A DNA stretch of 24,000 nt. Source: Dongia sp. (GTDB lineage Bacteria; Pseudomonadota; Alphaproteobacteria; Dongiales; Dongiaceae). Where the stretch lies: NCBI RefSeq assembly GCF_041905885.1, contig NZ_JAYRKD010000017.1:1-24000 (forward strand), given 5' to 3'. A model generated the notes under the pieces. It had not been told where the DNA came from and made no database searches. It saw nothing but the letters and a program-made list of their open reading frames with translations. Positions 4,536 through 20,639 of this stretch are shown here, one piece after another (within the stretch, counting starts at the first letter, position 1; each line of letters starts with the position of its first letter). A program made the position numbers and the translations under genes.

Positions 4536-5423
4536 ATGAGCATTGCACGCGCTAGAGAACTCAGAGCAAGTTCGACAGATGCAGAGCGGCTTCTGTGGCT
4601 CAAGCTGCGCGATCGACGCCTGGTGGGCGCGAAGTTTCGGCGTCAGGTTGAGTTCCCGCCGTACACCGTCGACTTCTGCTGCTTCGAAGCGAAGTTGATC
4701 GTTGAAGTTGACGGCAGTCAGCATGCTGAACGCGCGAAGCAAGATGCAGTTCGCACGCGTCGTCTGGAAGGTGACGGCTTCTCGGTCATCCGCTTCTGGA
4801 ACAATGACGTACTGACCAATACCAATGGCGTCCTGGAAGCGATCTTGACCGAGTTGAATCAGCGTGGCGCCCCGTTCGTAACGCCGCTGCCTCGTACTAG
4901 ACCCGAGCCGGAACGTGCGAAGGCGCAGCCCCGCCGTCGTGTTATGGCTGCAAGAAGCAGCGTCCCCTCTCCCCTCGTGGGAGAGGGACAGGGTGAGGGG
5001 GCGCCAGCCAGCGGAACCTCAACCCAGCCGGCGCATGTCCATCCGATCCGTGTCTATTTCGAGGATACGGATGCGGGCGGGATGGTTTACTACGCCAACT
5101 ACCTGAAATTCGCCGAGCGCGCCCGGACCGAGATGCTGCGCGCGGGCGGGATCAACCACGCCGAGATGGTGGCGCAAGACGGGTTGATGCTGGTGGTGCG
5201 ACGCTGCACCGCCGAGTATCACCGTTCGGCACGCCTCGACGATGAACTCGCGGTCGAGACGCGGGTTTCTGCCCTGGCTGGGGCATCAATTCTGCTTGAT
5301 CAGGTCGTCCGTCGCGGGAGCGAGGTCCTGGTCGAGATCACGGTCACGATTGCCTGCGTGACGAAGGAAGGGCGAGCGACCCGCCTGCCGGAACGGCTGC
5401 GTGCTGCTATCGCCATAAACTGA
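4536..5423 (+). CDS. ybgC: single open frame: N-terminal DUF559 (Vsr-like PD-(D/E)xK endonuclease domain) continuing without a stop into the Tol-Pal-associated acyl-CoA thioesterase YbgC
   Basis: aa 1-110 carry DUF559 signatures: RARELRASSTDAERLLWLKLRDRRLVGAKFRRQ, YTVDFCCFEAKLIVEVDGSQH, GFSVIRFWNNDV. aa ~165-295 are the 4HBT/YbgC part (IRVYFEDTDAGGMVYYANYLKFAERARTEMLR). The ~55-aa linker is partly encoded by a hairpin repeat. Internal candidate ybgC starts are ATG 4944 and GTG 4977. The stop at 5423 is secure; the true start is uncertain. Confidence 0.7.
   Translation: MSIARARELRASSTDAERLLWLKLRDRRLVGAKFRRQVEFPPYTVDFCCFEAKLIVEVDGSQHAERAKQDAVRTRRLEGDGFSVIRFWNNDVLTNTNGVLEAILTELNQRGAPFVTPLPRTRPEPERAKAQPRRRVMAARSSVPSPLVGEGQGEGAPASGTSTQPAHVHPIRVYFEDTDAGGMVYYANYLKFAERARTEMLRAGGINHAEMVAQDGLMLVVRRCTAEYHRSARLDDELAVETRVSALAGASILLDQVVRRGSEVLVEITVTIACVTKEGRATRLPERLRAAIAIN
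4963..5005 (+). repeat. short copy of the same hairpin repeat family, inside the DUF559-ybgC linker
   Basis: CCTCTCCC-ctcgt-GGGAGAGG (4966-4986) followed by GACAGGGTGAGGGGGCGCC. The core is identical to 4292-4312 and 4356-4368 and translates as SPLVGEGQGEG. Confidence 0.8.
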
Positions 5424-5463
5424 CCACAATGTTGCGCAAGTTGAAGCAGAAGCGAGACGAGAC

Positions 5464-6269
<806 letters not shown>

Positions 6270-13150: not shown

Positions 13151-15079
13151 GTGAATTTGGGCAAGAATCTCATCATCTGGGCGGCGATCATGGTGCTCCT
13201 GATCGTCCTCTTCCAGGTCTTCCAGAGCGGCAGCAGCCGGAACGGCCGCACCGAGACCGCCTACAGCGATTTCCTCGCCCAGGTCCAGCAGGGCCAGATC
13301 TCCGACGTGACCATCTCGACGTCGCAGAACCAGGGTCGCGCCATCAACGGCCACACCACCAACGGCACCGCCTTCTCGACCTATGCGCCGGAGGATCCCA
13401 AGCTGGTCGAGCTGCTGACCGCCAAGAACGTGAAGATCACCGCCAAGGCCGAGGATGATTCGATGAATCCTCTGCTGGCCATCCTGATCAACTGGGCGCC
13501 GCTGCTGATCATCGCCGGCGCCTGGATCTTCGTGATGCGCCAGATGCAGGCCAATGGCGGCAAGGCCATGGGCTTCGGCAAGTCCAAGGCGCGCCTGCTG
13601 AACGAGCGCGCCGGCCGCGTCACCTTCGACGACGTGGCGGGCATCGAGGAAGCCAAGGGCGAGCTGGAAGAGATCGTCGAATTCCTGAAGGACCCGCAGA
13701 AGTTCCAGCGCCTCGGCGGCAAGATCCCGAAGGGCTGCCTGCTGGTCGGCCCCCCGGGCACCGGCAAGACCTTGCTCGCCCGCGCCATCGCCGGCGAAGC
13801 CAACGTGCCGTTCTTCACCATCTCCGGCTCGGACTTCGTCGAGATGTTCGTCGGCGTGGGTGCTTCCCGTGTCCGCGACATGTTCGAGCAGGGCAAGAAG
13901 AACGCGCCTTGCATCATCTTCATTGACGAAATCGACGCGGTCGGCCGCCATCGCGGCGCGGGCCTCGGCGGCGGCAACGACGAGCGCGAGCAGACCCTGA
14001 ACCAGCTGCTGGTCGAGATGGACGGCTTCGAGGCGAACGAGGGTGTCATCCTGATCGCCGCCACCAACCGTCCCGACGTGCTCGATCCCGCGCTGCTGCG
14101 CCCGGGCCGTTTCGACCGCCAGATCACGGTGCCGAACCCCGACATCAGCGGCCGCGAGCACATCCTCAAAGTCCATATGCGCAAGGTCCCGCTGGGCCCG
14201 GATGTGGACGCGCGGGTGATCGCCCGCGGCACGCCGGGCTTCTCCGGCGCCGATCTCGCCAACCTGGTGAACGAGGCGGCACTTCTGGCCGCCCGCTTCG
14301 GCAAGCGCGTCGTCACCATGTCCGACTTCGAGCAGGCCAAGGACAAGGTGCTGATGGGCGCCGAGCGGCGCTCCATGGTGATGACCGACGAGGAGAAGCT
14401 GGCGACGGCCTATCACGAGACCGGCCATGCGATCGTCAACATCGAGCTGCCCGAGTGCGACCCCTTGCACAAGGTGACGATCATCCCGCGCGGCCGTGCG
14501 CTCGGTGTCACCATGGCTCTGCCGGAGAAGGACCGCTACAGCTACACCAAGGGCTGGATGGAGAGCCGGATCGCCATGTGCTTCGGCGGCCGCATCGCCG
14601 AGCAGCTGATCTACGGCGAATCGCATCTGAATTCCGGCGCCTCCGACGACATCCGCCAGGCCACCGGCATGGCGCGCCGCATGGTGACCGAGTTCGGGAT
14701 GAGCGAGAAGCTTGGGCCGCTGCGCTACAGCGAGAACGAGGAAGAGGTCTTCCTCGGCCACTCGGTGACCCAGCGCAAGAATGTCTCCGACGACACCGCC
14801 AGGCTGATCGACCAGGAAGTGCGGCGCATCGTCGAGGAAGGCGAGCAGAAGGCCCGCGAGATCCTGTCGAAGAATATCGACGGGCTCCACGTGGTCGCCA
14901 AGGCGCTGCTGGAATACGAGACGCTCTCCGGCGACGAGGTCCAGGCCTTGCTGCGCGGCGAGAAGATCCGCCAGGCCAACAGCGATTCCGACAAGCCGAA
15001 GCCGCGCTCCTCGGTGCCGACCGCCGGCGCCACGGTGCAACGCCCGACCGGTCTTGACCCGCGGCCGGGTACGGCGTGA
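13151..15079 (+). CDS. ftsH: ATP-dependent zinc metalloprotease FtsH
   Basis: [21 protein letters not shown] (TM1), Walker [12 protein letters not shown], Walker [15 protein letters not shown] region [20 protein letters not shown], and zinc site HETGHA. Confidence 0.97.
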
Positions 15080-16188
15080 GCACGGAAAGAACGGACACGA
15101 TCGTCCCGAGCCCCGCCGAACGGCGGGGCTTTTCCGTTGCAGAAGGCGGGCGGCGCCGCTACCTGCTGCCGCGCGGGCTGCTGCGCGGTCCCGCGGCCGA
15201 GCGCGTGATTGAGGCGGGCGCCGCCTTGCCCCTGGCCGGCGGCGCCTTTGCCTTCTGCTTCGCCGAAAGCGCCGAGCGCAAGCCGGGCGAGGCCGGCATC
15301 CGCAAGCCGGTCTGGCTCGGCGATCTCGCCGCGCCGGATCGCGCGCTGCTGGACGGCCTGCTCGAGCCGCGCATGATCTGGGCGGGCTTCGATCTCCTGC
15401 GCCCGCTGATCATGGGCGTCGTCAACGTGACCCCCGACAGCTTCTCCGACGGCGGCGATTTCGCGCATGCCGACGACGCGATCGCCCAGGGCGTTCGCCT
15501 GGCGGAGCAGGGCGCCGACATCATCGACATCGGCGGCGAATCCACCCGCCCCGGCGCCCAGGAAGTCTCCGCCGAAGAGGAGATCCGCCGCGTCGTCCCC
15601 GTCGTCCGCGCCCTTTCCGAGCGCGGCCTCTGCGTCTCGATCGACACCCGCCATGCCGGGGTGATGGCGGCGGCGGTCGCGGCGGGTGCCCGCATCATCA
15701 ACGACATCACCGCCCTGACCGGCGATCCGGACAGTCCCAAGGTCGCGGCCAAGTCCGGCGCGGCGATGGTGCTCATGCACATGCAGGGCGAGCCCCGCAC
15801 CATGCAGGCCGACCCGCATTACGCCGACACGACCCTCGATCTCCTCGACTACTTCACCGAGCGCCTGGCCGATCTGCGCAACCTCGGCGTCGATCCCGCC
15901 CGCATCGCCCTCGATCCCGGCATCGGCTTCGGCAAGAAGGACCCGCACAACCTGCTGCTGCTCCAGGAGCTGGCCGCCTTCCAGGTCTTCGGCTGCCCGG
16001 TCCTGCTCGGCGTCTCCAGGAAGAGCTTCGTCGGCCGGCTCTCCCGCAAGGAGCCGCCGAAAGAACGCCTCGCCGGGTCCTTGGCCGCCGGCCTCGCCGG
16101 CCTCGACCAAGGCGTCCAGATCCTCCGCGTCCACGATGTGGCCGAGACCTACCAGGCCCGGGCGATCTGGGTGGCGATGGGCAGGTGA
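15076..16188 (+). CDS. folP: dihydropteroate synthase FolP with a ~100-aa N-terminal extension
   Basis: [59 protein letters not shown] 15076 overlaps the ftsH stop and is the only canonical start upstream of the [10 protein letters not shown]...LPLAGG segment. I recall that segment from other alphaproteobacterial FolP N-termini. ATG 15369 ([15 protein letters not shown]...) is the minimal alternative. Confidence 0.85.
15108..15132 (+). terminator. intrinsic-terminator-like hairpin 30 nt after the ftsH stop, inside the annotated 5' end of folP
   Basis: AGCCCCGCC-gaac-GGCGGGGCT followed by TTTT (15129-15132). Confidence 0.55.
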
Positions 16189-16203
16189 CCGAACGAGGTC
16201 AAC

Positions 16204-17346
16204 ATGAAACGAAGCTTCTGGATGGTCTTGAGTTTCGTGATGCTGGGCCTGATCGTCCAGGTGCACCCGGTAGCCGCACAAGATCCGCCCAACGGGTTCT
16301 CGAAGGCGTTCTTCGAAGATATCGAGACGCCCTCTGAGATGACCGGCTTGTGGAATCGCGCTTTCGATCGGTGCGAAGCAGCCGCTCAGCAGCCGGTGGA
16401 AGATTGCATACTCGATCGTGCCGCGAAAATCATCGGCCACGGGAGTTTGACGGGTCCTCGCTGTGCGCACGTGTCTTATGCCATTGCCAGGCACTACTGC
16501 ATCGTGATCGGATCAATCGCCGCGGACCTTATCGTCAAGTTTGAGCTCGATAGCGCTGACGGCTTCATCGAGGCGCAGGGCGATAGGTTGGAATTGGATC
16601 CCGCCGGCACGCAGGTGTGGTCATACTTGAACCGGAAGTGCCCAGCGCCCGCAGCTCCTGCCGGTTGTCACTTCGATGAGGTGTCACGCCGTTTAGATCC
16701 CGGCGCCAAGGATATTGCCTCGTGCAAGTCCATTGTCGAAGCGCATGGTCAGGTTGACTGCCTGATTGCGCACTGGTTCGCCGCACAAGTGCGCTCTGCC
16801 GAGACGGCGGAGAAAGTTGGCATTTCCGGCGACTTCTTCTTTCATCGAGGCGTGAAGCCGGCGATCAACGATCTTGCGCGGCATGCTCAGGCCAATTGCG
16901 CCCGGGCAGGGGCCGCCAGTGGCTCGGATTGCCTCGTCTCCAGCGTTGCCGCAGTTCTGCCTTACGGCAACGAGATGATGCCGTACTGCAGAGACATCGC
17001 AGACGACGTCGATCGCTATCTTTGTGTCTTGACCGGTGCCCTGGCGACCGACCTTTACGCAAGGATCGGCGTTGGACCTGCCGGCACCTTCTTGACGCAG
17101 TATGGGAGCGACCGGGAGCGAACGATTGACCGGGCAGATGCGGAAGTGGCGGTTTTCCTGGCAGAGAAATGTCGGAAGACCACCGACGGCACCCGATGCG
17201 GCCCCCAGGAACTGGCGCGCCGGCTTGAAGTCGCGCCCGACGCCCTGAAACAGTGCGATTTTTTGACCGAGGATCGGCAAAGCATAAACTGTCTCATGGC
17301 CAGCCATGTGGTCCAAACACTCCAGGCGGCCGACGGCCAGCTATGA
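16204..17346 (+). CDS. secreted cysteine-rich repeat protein of unknown family (16 Cys, four C-x8/10-C-x18-C-x11-C modules)
   Basis: GAGGT lies 5 nt upstream of the ATG. Signal peptide MKRSFWMVLSFVMLGLIVQVHPVAA|QD. Two ~170-aa halves have identical Cys spacing. More A/T-ending codons by eye than the flanking genes. No family recognised. Confidence 0.8.
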   Translation: MKRSFWMVLSFVMLGLIVQVHPVAAQDPPNGFSKAFFEDIETPSEMTGLWNRAFDRCEAAAQQPVEDCILDRAAKIIGHGSLTGPRCAHVSYAIARHYCIVIGSIAADLIVKFELDSADGFIEAQGDRLELDPAGTQVWSYLNRKCPAPAAPAGCHFDEVSRRLDPGAKDIASCKSIVEAHGQVDCLIAHWFAAQVRSAETAEKVGISGDFFFHRGVKPAINDLARHAQANCARAGAASGSDCLVSSVAAVLPYGNEMMPYCRDIADDVDRYLCVLTGALATDLYARIGVGPAGTFLTQYGSDRERTIDRADAEVAVFLAEKCRKTTDGTRCGPQELARRLEVAPDALKQCDFLTEDRQSINCLMASHVVQTLQAADGQL

Positions 17347-17442: not shown

Positions 17443-17451
17443 TGCTATAAT
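17443..17451 (+). promoter_or_regulatory. candidate extended -10 promoter element TGCTATAAT upstream of glmM
   Basis: TGnTATAAT match ends 31 nt upstream of the glmM ATG. No convincing -35 element. Confidence 0.3.
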
Positions 17452-17482: not shown

Positions 17483-18835
17483 ATGACGCGCAAACTCTTC
17501 GGCACCGATGGTGTCCGCGGCCTCGCCAACAGCGAGCCGATCACCGCCGAGACCGCCCTCAAGCTGGCCTTGGTGGCCGGCGCCCATTTCACCCGCGGCG
17601 ACCACCGCCACCGGGTGATCATCGGCAAGGACACCCGCCTCTCCGGCTACATGCTGGAGACGGCGATGACCTCCGGTTTTCTCTCGGCGGGAATGGACGT
17701 CATCCTGCTCGGCCCAATGCCGACCCCGGCCGTGGGCATGCTGACCCGCTCCATGCGCGCCGACCTCGGCGTCATGATCTCGGCCTCGCACAACCCTTAT
17801 GAGGACAACGGCATCAAGCTGTTCGGCCCGGACGGGTTCAAGCTCTCCGACGAGATCGAAGCGGCGATCGAGGCGCGTCTTGCCTCGGGCGATCTCGCCA
17901 AGCTGCTGGCTCCTTCCGCCGAGCTCGGCCGCGCCAAGCGCGTGGATGACCCCGGCCGCTACATCGAGTTCGTGAAGTCGAGCTTTCCGAAGGGTCTCAG
18001 CCTCGCCGGCTTGAAGGTCGTTATCGATTGCGCCAACGGCGCCGCCTACAAGGTCGCCCCGACCGTGCTCTGGGAGCTGGGCGCCGAGGTGATCCCGATC
18101 GGCGTCGAGCCCAACGGCACCAACATCAACCGCGACTGCGGCGCCATGCATCCCGATCGCCTCAAGGCCTTGGTGCGCGAGCGCGGCGCCGATCTCGGCA
18201 TTGCCCTCGACGGCGACGCCGACCGGGTCATAGTGGTCGATGAGCGCGGCCATGTGGTCGATGGCGACCAGCTGATGGGTGTCATCGCCCGGTCCTGGGC
18301 GGTGGCTGGCCGGCTCAAGGCCGACTGCGTCACCGCGACGGTCATGTCCAACCTCGGCCTGGAGCGATTCCTCCAGGCCCAGCGCATCGCCTTGAAGCGC
18401 ACGCCCGTCGGCGACCGCTACGTGGTCGAGGAGATGCGCCGCAACGGCGGCAACCTCGGCGGCGAGCAGTCCGGCCATATCATCCTCACCGACTTCGCCA
18501 CCACCGGCGACGGGCTGATGGCGGCGCTGCAGGTCCTGGCGGTCCAGGTCCAGGCCGACAAGCCGTCGAGCGAGACCCTCCGGGTCTTCGCGCCGCTGCC
18601 GCAGCTCCTGAAGAACGTGCGCTACCGCGCCGGCGCCGGCCTGCCGCTGGAGCAGGCCGCGGTGAAGGCCGCGATTGAGGCCGGCGAGGCGGAGCTCATC
18701 GGCAAGGGCCGGCTGCTGATCCGGAAGTCCGGCACCGAGCCGCTGATCCGCGTCATGGCCGAAGGCGAGGACGAGGAACTGGTGGCAAGGGTCGTCGCCG
18801 ACATCGTGAAGGCGGTCGAAGCCGCCGCCGCATGA
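17483..18835 (+). CDS. glmM: phosphoglucosamine mutase GlmM
   Basis: [13 protein letters not shown], active-site loop [17 protein letters not shown], metal site [30 protein letters not shown]. Confidence 0.97.
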
Positions 18836-19257
18836 GCTTGCTCCGGCGGCTGGTCGTCCTCGCCTTGCTTCTGGCCAGCCCGGCGATCGCCGCCGACCCC
18901 CAGCCGCAGCTTCTCCAAGCCGGCTTCGCGGAAGAACGCCCCTGGCCCGAGGCGGCCCGCCGCGGCGGCTATGACCAGGCAGCGCTCAGCCTCACCAGCC
19001 CCGGCCTCGCCTTCTGGGTCGACGTCGCCCATCTCCAGCAGGGCGACCATCTGGTGCTCAGCCTGAAGAGCCCAGACCGCGGTATCATGGCGACGCGCGA
19101 CATTCCTTTCAGTCGACCGACTGATCGCTTCTTCGCCTTCGCCGGTGCCAACCACCCGCAGCGCGGCTGGCAGTCCGGCCCCTATGTCGGGCGGGTTCAA
19201 GTCATCCGCGGCGACCAGATTCTCATCGAAGCGACACGCCAAATCGCCTTGCCATAG
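18832..19257 (+). CDS. hypothetical small secreted protein
   Basis: ATG overlaps the glmM stop (ATGA). Signal peptide [20 protein letters not shown]|AD. G/C-rich third positions. No family recognised. Confidence 0.6.
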
Positions 19258-19297: not shown

Positions 19298-19567
19298 ATG
19301 CCTTCGGTCCAGTTCACGTCGCATCTCAGGAAGGTCGCACCGACCGGCAGCATGACGGTCGGCGGCGCGACCCTGCGCCGGGCGCTCGACGAAGTCTTCG
19401 CGCTGCATCCCAAAGTGAAGTCCTACGTGCTCGACGACCAGGAACGTCTGCGCAAGCATGTCGTCATCTTCGTCGACGGCGAACGTATTTCCGGCGGCAG
19501 CGACTTGATGCGGCCGGTCAGTCCCTCTGCCCAAATCTATGTTCTTCAAGCATTGTCGGGAGGATGA
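19298..19567 (+). CDS. MoaD/ThiS-family ubiquitin-like beta-grasp protein with a free C-terminal Gly-Gly
   Basis: 89 aa ending ...QIYVLQALSGG-stop. Size and pattern (V.F...L......V.G.TL..AL...., VIFVDGE) are typical of ThiS/MoaD sulfur carriers. GGGAG lies upstream of the ATG. Confidence 0.8.
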   Translation: MPSVQFTSHLRKVAPTGSMTVGGATLRRALDEVFALHPKVKSYVLDDQERLRKHVVIFVDGERISGGSDLMRPVSPSAQIYVLQALSGG

Positions 19568-19568
19568 G

Positions 19569-20639
19569 ATGGCGTCGCGTTTGCTGGTCGGCAGCCGCAA
19601 GGGACTCTTCGTCCTGGAACCGAAAGGCAGCGAATGGAAGATCGCGCAGCAGGCCTTCATCGGCCAGCCGGTCTCCCAGGTGCTCCACGACCCGCGCGAC
19701 GGCAGCCTCTACGTCGCGCTCAACCTCGGCCATTTCGGCGCCAAGTTGCACCGCTCCGATGACCAGGGTACCACCTGGACCGAGGTCAGCGCGCCGGCCT
19801 TCCCCAAGCAAGAGGGGAAGGAAGATGCACCTAGCGTCGCCATGATCTGGGCATTGGAAGCGGCGGGCCTGGACATGCCCGGGGTGATCTGGGCCGGCAC
19901 CATGCCGGCGGGCGTCTTCCAGTCCAAGGACAAGGGTGTCACCTGGACCCAGAACACTGCTTTCGACGCGATCCCCGGCAAGGCTGAGTGGTTCGGCGGC
20001 GGCAACGATGCGCCCGCTTTGCATTCGATCTCGATCCACCCGAAGGACAGCCGCAAGATGGTGGTCGGCATCTCCTGCGGCGGCGCCTGGGTCACCGAGG
20101 ATGCGGGACTCACCTGGGGCAATGGCTGCAAGGGCATGTGGGCGGCCTATATGCCGCCCGATCAGAAACAGAACCCGGCCGCCCAGGACCCGCACCGGAT
20201 CGTCCGGTGCCGCGACCATCCGGAGACGCTCTGGACCCAGCACCACAATGCCCAGTTCCGGTCCACCAATGGCGCCGCCGAGTGGAGCACGATCTCCGAG
20301 ACCTTCGGCTTCGCCGTCGCCGCCCATCCGCGGAATGCCGAGACCGCCTGGTTCGTCCCCGCGCAGAAGGACGAGTTCCGCATCCCCGAGAACGGCGACT
20401 TCTGTGTCCTCAAGACCGAGGACGGCGGCAGGAGCTTCCGCCGCATCACCGCCGGCCTGCCGCCGAAACCCTGCTACGACCTCATCTACCGCCACGCCCT
20501 CGACGTCGATGAAGAGGGCCGCGCGCTCGCCTTCGGCTCGACCACGGGAAACCTTTGGGCAAGCGGGGATAGCGGCGAAAGCTGGCGCGTCGTCTCAAAC
20601 CATCTGCCGCCGATCTACGTTCTTAAGTTCGCGCTTTAG
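19569..20639 (+). CDS. cytoplasmic BNR/Asp-box repeat beta-propeller protein (sialidase-like / Ycf48-like fold), function unknown
   Basis: ATG lies 1 nt after the upstream TGA, with SD GGAGG at 19559-19563. Asp-boxes SDDQGTTW, SKDKGVTW, TEDAGLTW, TEDGGRSF and SGDSGESW, plus a degenerate STNGAAEW. No signal peptide. The ORF-track start at 19539 would overlap the Ubl gene and is less likely. Confidence 0.85.
   Translation: MASRLLVGSRKGLFVLEPKGSEWKIAQQAFIGQPVSQVLHDPRDGSLYVALNLGHFGAKLHRSDDQGTTWTEVSAPAFPKQEGKEDAPSVAMIWALEAAGLDMPGVIWAGTMPAGVFQSKDKGVTWTQNTAFDAIPGKAEWFGGGNDAPALHSISIHPKDSRKMVVGISCGGAWVTEDAGLTWGNGCKGMWAAYMPPDQKQNPAAQDPHRIVRCRDHPETLWTQHHNAQFRSTNGAAEWSTISETFGFAVAAHPRNAETAWFVPAQKDEFRIPENGDFCVLKTEDGGRSFRRITAGLPPKPCYDLIYRHALDVDEEGRALAFGSTTGNLWASGDSGESWRVVSNHLPPIYVLKFAL

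Follow-up and report, generated by a model that had tools for sequence, protein, structure and literature searches.

The window analysed here is a stretch of 24,000 nucleotides (nt) from Dongia sp. (RefSeq assembly GCF_041905885.1, contig NZ_JAYRKD010000017.1, positions 1 to 24,000 of the forward strand), and our subject is a 380-residue open reading frame (ORF) with 16 cysteines that lies between folP and glmM, referred to below as the 16-Cys gene. The window reads, in order, ybgC-like, tolQ, tolR, probable tolA, tolB, pal, cpoB, tilS, ftsH, folP, the 16-Cys gene and glmM, after which come a small secreted ORF, a ThiS-like ORF and a BNR/sortilin-like ORF. The immediate setting of the gene is the following (loci and proteins of relatives are cited below by their numbers, L and P).

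13151-15079, + strand: ftsH, from the ORF list, first gene of the string ftsH-folP-(16-Cys gene or related unit)-glmM
15076-16188, + strand: folP, dihydropteroate synthase (Pfam PF00809, E = 1.9e-82, residues 113-353), 85% identical to folP of Dongia sedimenti
16195-16198, + strand: GAGG, Shine-Dalgarno-like as read from the sequence, 5 nt 5' of the ATG of the 16-Cys gene
16204-17346, + strand: 16-Cys gene, an intact ORF of 380 amino acids (aa) with an ATG start
17483-18835, + strand: glmM, phosphoglucosamine mutase, 87% identical to glmM of D. sedimenti

The ftsH and folP genes overlap by 4 nt, the folP stop (16188) is separated from the 16-Cys ORF by 15 nt, and a gap of 136 nt lies between that ORF and the glmM start (17483). 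At orthologous loci ftsH encodes FtsH_ext, AAA and Peptidase_M41 domains, and glmM encodes PGM_PMM domains I-IV.

The cysteines occupy residues 57, 68, 87, 99, 146, 155, 174, 186, 232, 243, 262, 274, 323, 332, 351 and 363, which gives spacings of 10, 18, 11, 46, 8, 18 and 11 in the first half of the protein and, after an interval of 45, of 10, 18, 11, 48, 8, 18 and 11 in the second. Of the seven spacings in the first half, six are repeated exactly in the second; when 16 cysteines were placed at random 500,000 times, no placement gave more than four such repeats, and four were reached five times. The original prediction, made from the letters alone, had described this spacing and read it as the duplication of an already duplicated unit. 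Every position of its pattern agrees with our count, and the motifs that it quoted (HYCIVIGSIAADLI / YLCVLTGALATDLY and RRL...C...(D/N)CL(I/M)A.H) stand in register when the halves are aligned with each other. The duplication is likewise borne out at both levels: the halves align from end to end with 24% identity (pairwise E = 4e-18), and the two four-cysteine modules inside one unit are matched by hhalign with a probability of 90% (E = 1.7e-6, 68 columns, four cysteines in register), a score to which the cysteines themselves contribute. The resulting layout of the protein is listed here, with scores from a hidden Markov model (HMM) of the unit given as independent E-values (iE).

16204-16278, + strand: predicted Sec signal peptide cleaved by signal peptidase I (SPase I), residues 1-25, predicted cleavage between VAA and QDP
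16279-16818, + strand: N-type eight-cysteine unit, residues 26-205, iE = 1.1e-62, clusters with P0009, a free-standing protein of D. sedimenti
16327-16539, + strand: module 1, about residues 42-112, cysteines 57, 68, 87 and 99
16594-16809, + strand: module 2, about residues 131-202, cysteines 146, 155, 174 and 186
16819-17343, + strand: C-type eight-cysteine unit, residues 206-380, iE = 2.9e-63, clusters with P0010 and P0011
16852-17067, + strand: module 3, about residues 217-288, cysteines 232, 243, 262 and 274
17119-17340, + strand: module 4, about residues 306-379, cysteines 323, 332, 351 and 363

Relatives of the complete protein are scarce. A word-indexed search of 5.8 billion proteins returned only six full-length homologues, all of them metagenomic and unannotated and 53-62% identical to the query, and all 16 cysteines are invariant in the six. 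Among 1.84 billion cluster representatives, searched exhaustively with an HMM, 20 proteins scored E <= 1e-3; besides the full-length cluster and fragments, these are 196-231 aa long and match one half of the query, some the first and some the second. Since most family hits are of this size and each carries one eight-cysteine motif, we conclude that the natural unit is the eight-cysteine half of about 175 aa, a free-standing gene elsewhere, and that the window protein, as judged from its sequence, is a fusion of an N-type and a C-type unit. Its C-type unit is 45% identical to a free-standing 201-aa protein at L004:371-976. The history of duplication is clear at three levels, from the four-cysteine module to the eight-cysteine unit and from there to the 16-cysteine fusion.

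The motif C-x(4-15)-C-x18-C-x11-C-x(44-49)-C-x(5-13)-C-x(16-18)-C-x(10-11)-C is present in each half of the window protein and in every complete homologue. The eight cysteines are the sole invariant columns among 24 aligned units, so that the disulfide-type pattern is kept in homologues both at the level of the unit (8/8) and of the whole protein (16/16). These units are 16-64% identical to the N-unit of the window, the more distant among them 16-33%. What is conserved family-wide is the cysteines and a few small or hydrophobic residues, with no other polar residue. Most members are single-unit lipoproteins, often in arrays of tandem paralogues, and every member that could be traced, by look-ups of exact proteins and by scanning the GTDB species genomes with folP as anchor, comes from the Dongiaceae (Rhodospirillales). 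As far as members are traceable, therefore, the family is in all likelihood confined to the Dongiaceae, where it changes by tandem duplication, fusion and loss; we hold this conclusion jointly with the reality of the gene and its architecture. Scans of GTDB genomes and of metagenomes with peptide patterns derived from the full-length alignment found no relative, which probably reflects the limits of the patterns, because D. sedimenti carries a unit. Searches of the literature brought up nothing on the 16-Cys protein or on the envelope biology of Dongia.

The signal peptide proposed originally is supported by inspection: MKRS is followed by a hydrophobic core of 16 residues and by V-A-A before Q, in agreement with the n, h and c regions and the -3/-1 rule, and the same layout is kept in the orthologues. 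In the AlphaFold2 (AF2) model residues 1-27 have a predicted local distance difference test score (pLDDT) below 50. Signal peptides of the SPase I type are found in the window protein and in P0002-P0011, and most other members have a lipobox, in some cases with a long Ala/Ser/Pro/Thr tether after the lipidated cysteine; these calls were made by inspection and by a regular-expression search of 30 members. With the gene and its architecture taken together, we regard it as very probable that the mature 16-Cys protein, predicted to be exported by Sec, is soluble, acidic (isoelectric point, pI, about 5.1) and periplasmic, with a mass of about 38 kDa. Almost all units of the family have a pI of 4.5-5.7.

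In every one of the 30 members, cysteines beyond the eight-cysteine core occur only in the signal peptide or the lipobox, and mature chains have exactly 8 or 16 cysteines, plus the acylated cysteine in lipoproteins. Because the cysteines of the mature chain, that of the lipobox aside, are the conserved positions only, each domain is most likely to form four disulfides and to have no free thiol, as judged from the invariance of the cysteines, their even number and the predicted export route. The 16 invariant cysteines could instead be functional thiols that store a metal such as copper or buffer redox changes, and cysteine-rich helical copper-storage proteins do exist in other bacteria. We consider this very improbable here: CxxC, CxxxC and CXXCH motifs are lacking, the cysteines lie at the ends of helices and not along their faces, predicted Sec export would deliver the protein into an oxidising periplasm, the number of cysteines in the mature chain is always even, and Pfam gives no match to DUF326/Csp or to any metal-binding family.

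The AF2 model of the full-length protein, built from seven sequences, is all-alpha with a pLDDT of 74 and a predicted template modelling score (pTM) of 0.52, and its linker residues 204-210 fall below a pLDDT of 50. The N-unit was modelled better from 23 aligned units (pLDDT 91.7, pTM 0.88) and has ten helices. In this model each module consists of a long helix ending at its first cysteine, a helix that begins at the second, a short helix ending at the third, and a last long helix with the fourth cysteine within its first turns; the loop between the first and second cysteines is the sole part of the module that varies in length across the family. The models suggest with high confidence, held jointly with the gene and its export, that the unit is an all-alpha domain of two homologous four-helix modules with cysteines at helix ends. 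It is also very likely from the full-length model, again jointly with the gene and its architecture, that the two units of the 16-Cys protein are flexibly linked.

The suggestion that the protein belongs to an unrecognised family withstood searches by sequence and by fold. When the full protein and 23-24 units were scanned against Pfam and NCBIfam, the matches were noise only (IGFL at E = 0.016, UgpB, BstB and similar) and included no enzyme family or catalytic motif. There were no PADLOC matches, PHROGs gave noise only (E >= 0.06), and PDB sequences were not matched at E <= 10 by either the single sequence or the unit profile. The weak matches in Pfam, NCBIfam and PHROGs are artefacts of cysteines or composition. 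Foldseek with the unit model of pLDDT 92 reached at best E = 0.93 and a template modelling (TM) score of at most 0.30 against PDB, and E = 1.2 and TM of at most 0.25 against BFVD, where a match was taken to require E <= 1e-3 or TM >= 0.5; the full-length model (pLDDT 74) gave a best E of 0.67, with spurious matches to membrane transporters only. Set against Pfam, NCBIfam, PDB, BFVD, PADLOC and PHROGs, the units very probably form a previously undescribed domain family of about 175 aa, a statement that shares one degree of confidence with the gene and its architecture. The unit model, compared with the folds of PDB and BFVD, probably represents a new disulfide-stapled helical fold.

The original prediction had also noted a faint resemblance to DUF1311/LprI-type proteins, and this did not hold up. 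Generic likeness is all that favours a divergent member of this family of lysozyme inhibitors (a periplasmic or lipoprotein location, helical structure and four conserved cysteines per module). PF07007 was matched neither by the full protein (gathering threshold 22 bits) nor by any of 24 units at E <= 10, with E. coli YecT serving as the positive control (E = 1e-17, 64.8 bits). The hhalign probability of the unit profile was 0.08% against E. coli YecT and 0.3% against an alignment of the YecT family, which is shallow (59% identity or more) and so limits the sensitivity of that comparison. In the YecT family the conserved cysteines occupy positions 52, 109 and 133 (gaps of 56 and 23), unlike the C-x(4-15)-C-x18-C-x11-C found here. 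The negative Foldseek result against PDB may not extend to DUF1311 structures. We regard membership in the LprI/DUF1311 family as extremely improbable.

The fold comparison bears as well on the possibility that the protein carries or sequesters a hydrophobic small molecule or lipid, in the manner of saposins, plant non-specific lipid transfer proteins (nsLTPs) and insect odorant-binding proteins. An all-alpha bundle stapled by four predicted disulfides would suit such a role, as would the very hydrophobic conserved helices IVIGSIAADLIVKF and CVLTGALATDLY, and one member adjoins the gene for a substrate-binding protein of an ABC transporter. However, Foldseek found no similarity to saposin, nsLTP or odorant-binding structures in PDB, the hydrophobic helices are explained equally well as a buried core, and no transport genes are conserved beside the family. 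We judge a carrier function to be improbable.

Turning to the location of the gene, folP and glmM are separated by 24-154 nt in about 30 of the 33 related genome loci with both genes, spanning Dongia, other Dongiaceae, Skermanella, Stellaceae and Legionella. Since the two genes adjoin in so many loci, the ancestral state had no gene between them and the unit gene counts as an insertion. In Pseudomonas aeruginosa ftsH-folP-glmM acts as one RpoH-induced operon (PMC9866376). Units were present in the folP-glmM gap at only two of 41 related genome loci, those of D. sedimenti (L013) and of a Dongiaceae metagenome-assembled genome (MAG; L016), so that the gene is not a feature of all relatives at this position. 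It is noticeable that no unit gene lies in the gap of L014 and L015, two loci with a folP 82% and 76% identical to that of the window; being close by folP, they indicate that the presence of the unit is patchy. The occupants traced to this slot or to its folP side are as follows.

L001, L002 and L004: fused 16-Cys gene in the folP-glmM slot
L004: C-type half-gene in the slot beside the fused gene, so that this slot has three units
D. sedimenti: P0009, N-type single unit in the folP-glmM slot
L011: P0011, C-type single unit directly 3' of folP
P0012: more distant unit 3' of folP
L056: P0014, with folP and glmM on either side
L016: P0017, unit in the folP-glmM slot

The original prediction took the gene for an accessory insertion between folP and glmM. 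That it is an insertion stands, from the loci without it, but it is not a recent one: orthologues (53-62% identical) and paralogous units (about 20-30%) share the same slot, and the insertion is therefore old. Together with the reality and architecture of the gene, it is thus very likely that one major clade of the family has long resided there. In a neighbour-joining tree the N-units group with P0009 and the C-units with P0010, P0011 and the half-gene of L004; because they group with different free-standing units, the split between the N and C types is older than the fusion.

By the scan with folP as anchor the window belongs to the Dongiaceae, and the closest genome is that of Dongia sedimenti R-7. 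This species is nearer to the window organism than the organism of L001 is (tilS 71% versus 56%, cpoB 78% versus 66%) and nevertheless has the N-type only, which implies that the C-type unit was lost in D. sedimenti. Between window and D. sedimenti the unit is 48% identical and is the fastest-evolving gene of the region, its eight neighbours ranging from 63 to 96% (pal 96%, ftsH 93%, glmM 87%, folP 85%, cpoB 78%, tilS 71%, small secreted ORF 63%). Distant clades lie away from the folP slot, often in tandem arrays, with three adjacent paralogues in L005 (6214-8388), a similar arrangement in L006 and L008, and two overlapping paralogues at L057:195-1540. The arrays at these four loci consist of two or three strongly diverged lipoprotein genes (unit HMM 1e-8 to 1e-46).

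The composition of the gene was said to favour A/T-ending codons more than that of its neighbours, and this is so: its G+C content is 0.60 and its G+C content at third codon positions (GC3) is 0.69, compared with a GC3 of 0.82-0.92 in tilS, ftsH, folP, glmM and the downstream genes. Values below those of flanking genes would be expected of a gene from a recently transferred island or of a spurious ORF in high-GC DNA, explanations that we consider scarcely credible. Orthologues that are 53-62% identical preserve the frame, the length and the 16 cysteines in this slot, neither mobile-element genes nor flanking repeats are present, and low GC3 is common to all members at all loci (0.58-0.75, with neighbours at 0.83-0.93; 0.15-0.35 below adjacent genes in the window, L001, L002, L004, L005, L008 and L010). 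Recent horizontal transfer is refuted as the cause of the low GC3, since every orthologue and paralogue shares it, which makes it characteristic of the family as a whole; it could stem from weak selection on codons, from low expression, or from a turnover fast enough to outrun GC-biased processes. We are highly confident that the ORF is a real gene and that purifying selection acts on it.

Other cargo is seen in the folP-glmM gap of Dongiaceae. L026 has a 309-aa NYN-domain protein (5214-6143), and an insert of about 3.2 kb is present in two genomes (L025 and L040), encoding at L025:5032-7287 a GT2 glycosyltransferase and two paralogous small TPR proteins; L053 also has unrelated cargo. With unrelated genes filling it in other Dongiaceae, the junction seems to be a recurrent insertion site. 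We observed in addition that four MAGs named Candidatus Cybelea (L014), Terriglobales (L023), Terriglobia (L033) and Candidatus Udaeobacter (L035) have contigs with Dongiaceae-type folP (58-82%) and glmM (70-87% relative to the window), which are probably binning contamination.

No terminator-like site was found between folP, the 16-Cys ORF and glmM, and a scan for terminators and promoters around the gene gave nothing convincing; this simple scan passed over one element ahead of glmM, and the Rfam search had no match within the window.

17443-17451, + strand: TGCTATAAT, putative extended -10 element of glmM, 31 nt 5' of its ATG, a match to consensus only

The block from GAAACCCCGCCCAAAAACCGCCAT to TGCTATAAT ahead of glmM is kept in D. 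sedimenti (L010) and in L015, and L014 has the variant TGCTATAGT with one mismatch. Since L014 and L015 are among the loci with no unit gene, the promoter-like block is present with or without it. We regard TGCTATAAT as a probable promoter element of glmM. Because the unit sits between the folP stop and this probable promoter, the simplest arrangement is that the unit gene is read from the ftsH-folP transcript, which is probably the case.

As to function, the absence of any conserved polar residue other than cysteine across the family suggests a binding module rather than an enzyme. Fast evolution, arrays of paralogues, patchy presence and the existence of both soluble and lipoprotein versions favour a protective binder, and this set of features, together with a periplasmic site and disulfide stapling, is typical of periplasmic inhibitors and immunity-type binders. 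From such sequence features we tentatively propose that the protein may be a non-enzymatic binder or inhibitor that protects against an externally delivered factor acting on the envelope, a function that we regard as possible yet somewhat unlikely. The target might be, for example, a peptidoglycan hydrolase or a toxin from predators or competitors; disulfides would lend stability to a binder in the periplasm, and the housekeeping operon would provide constitutive or stress-linked expression. Taken as a whole, architecture and protective binding combined, this is our best explanation, although one that we hold as plausible and still short of probable. A bolder version, in which the eight-cysteine unit is a new fold and a counter-defence family against envelope toxins and hydrolases, parked in a stress-inducible essential operon and diversified in place, we think distinctly unlikely.

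Several considerations weigh against a protective binder. No toxin, effector or hydrolase gene lies beside any family member at the loci examined, and the contexts away from the folP slot have no common theme (one has FGGY kinase and trmFO, another has arginase together with an AlaX-like gene and an opp ABC transporter). Known lysozyme inhibitors have no match to the protein by sequence (Pfam) or by fold (PDB). Fast evolution and paralogy would also fit a structural protein under relaxed constraint, and the eight-cysteine fold may have look-alikes, characterised or not, beyond PDB and BFVD. The function is deduced throughout, and disulfides, export and co-transcription are all predictions.

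The lack of a partner toxin nearby would suit an endogenous protein of envelope homeostasis, that is, a periplasmic scaffold, spacer or chaperone that works with the envelope programme of the operon (tol-pal, cpoB, ftsH, glmM). Such a role would account for the stable place of the gene in the ftsH-folP-glmM string over deep divergence and for its occurrence in a tol-pal-cpoB-tilS-ftsH envelope cluster, and the lipoproteins with long Ala/Ser/Pro tethers resemble envelope-spanning anchors. On the other hand, L014, L015 and most Dongia, close relatives that share the operon, lack the gene, which is thus dispensable; it evolves faster than any other gene of the region, and other clades of the family are found in unrelated contexts. 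We regard a homeostatic role as a serious but unlikely alternative to the protective binder.

A few features of the neighbouring genes are recorded here as side observations. FolP has an N-terminal extension of about 110 aa (residues 1-112, window 15076-15410) before its Pterin_bind domain, which is kept in the closest Dongiaceae and is absent from matches in Legionella and Actinomycetota, these starting at residue ~107. The ORF 5' of tolQ (window 4536-5423, with a low GC3 of 0.69) combines a DUF559 (endonuclease-like) domain at residues 4-107 with a 4HBT (YbgC-like) thioesterase domain at residues 175-292, and may represent either a true fusion or two separate genes that the longest-ORF rule has joined. 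Overlapping the glmM stop (ATGA) is a 141-aa ORF with a signal peptide and no Pfam match (window 18832-19257); D. sedimenti has a 139-aa gene in the corresponding place with 63% identity to it, and the ORF is a second uncharacterised exported protein of the gene string. Further downstream (window 19298-20639), an 89-aa ThiS-like ORF, with a weak Pfam match (E = 0.0045), extends over the start of a 366-aa protein similar to BNR/sortilin-Vps10, a pair that is also present in D. sedimenti and L016.

If our account is true, it adds a new domain family with what is probably a new disulfide-stapled helical fold. It would also mean that an essential operon can keep lineage-specific cargo at its folP-glmM junction over long times; in Dongiaceae the slot carries the eight-cysteine family, or else an NYN-domain gene or a glycosyltransferase/TPR cassette. 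Secreted hypothetical proteins restricted to one lineage are common, and without a function the biological importance of this one is modest; the cultured strain D. sedimenti R-7 has a single-unit version, which makes the function directly testable.

Among known systems, LprI/DUF1311 proteins (PF07007; M. tuberculosis LprI, E. coli YecT) are alike in being exported or lipid-anchored, helical and equipped with about four conserved cysteines per domain, in having lipoprotein and soluble forms within one family, and in that a cell-wall role has been proposed for them. They differ in the lack of an HMM match and in cysteines that are widely separated in YecT, whereas the family described here has a duplicated four-helix module in a domain of about 175 aa. 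The lysozyme inhibitors PliC/MliC, Ivy and PliG offer a functional analogy only: they are periplasmic, stabilised by disulfides, dispensable and patchily distributed, with soluble and lipoprotein versions. Those families are beta-rich, whereas the eight-cysteine unit is all-alpha in its model, and no Pfam HMM of PliC/MliC, Ivy, PliG or Sel1-like/TPR proteins was matched at E <= 10 by the full protein or 24 units, nor was there a match in NCBIfam or to a PDB fold of the inhibitors. The cysteine-rich or Sel1-like repeat (SLR) proteins of Helicobacter are likewise secreted helical repeats with disulfide-stapled modules that grow by module duplication. SLR modules are of about 36 aa with one disulfide each, whereas the modules here are of about 75 aa with four cysteines and have no Sel1 or TPR match in Pfam or Foldseek. 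Saposin-like, nsLTP and odorant-binding bundles resemble the unit as compact all-alpha domains with three or four disulfide cross-links, but they are eukaryotic, have other cysteine motifs and are without similarity to it in Foldseek. Finally, periplasmic immunity proteins of type VI secretion systems (the all-alpha Tai4/Rap type) normally lie beside effector genes, of which there are none at the loci examined, and neither sequence nor fold searches gave a match to them; what they and orphan immunity arrays have in common with this family is that they are small, exported, fast-evolving and non-enzymatic binders, often tandemly duplicated and sometimes disulfide-bonded.

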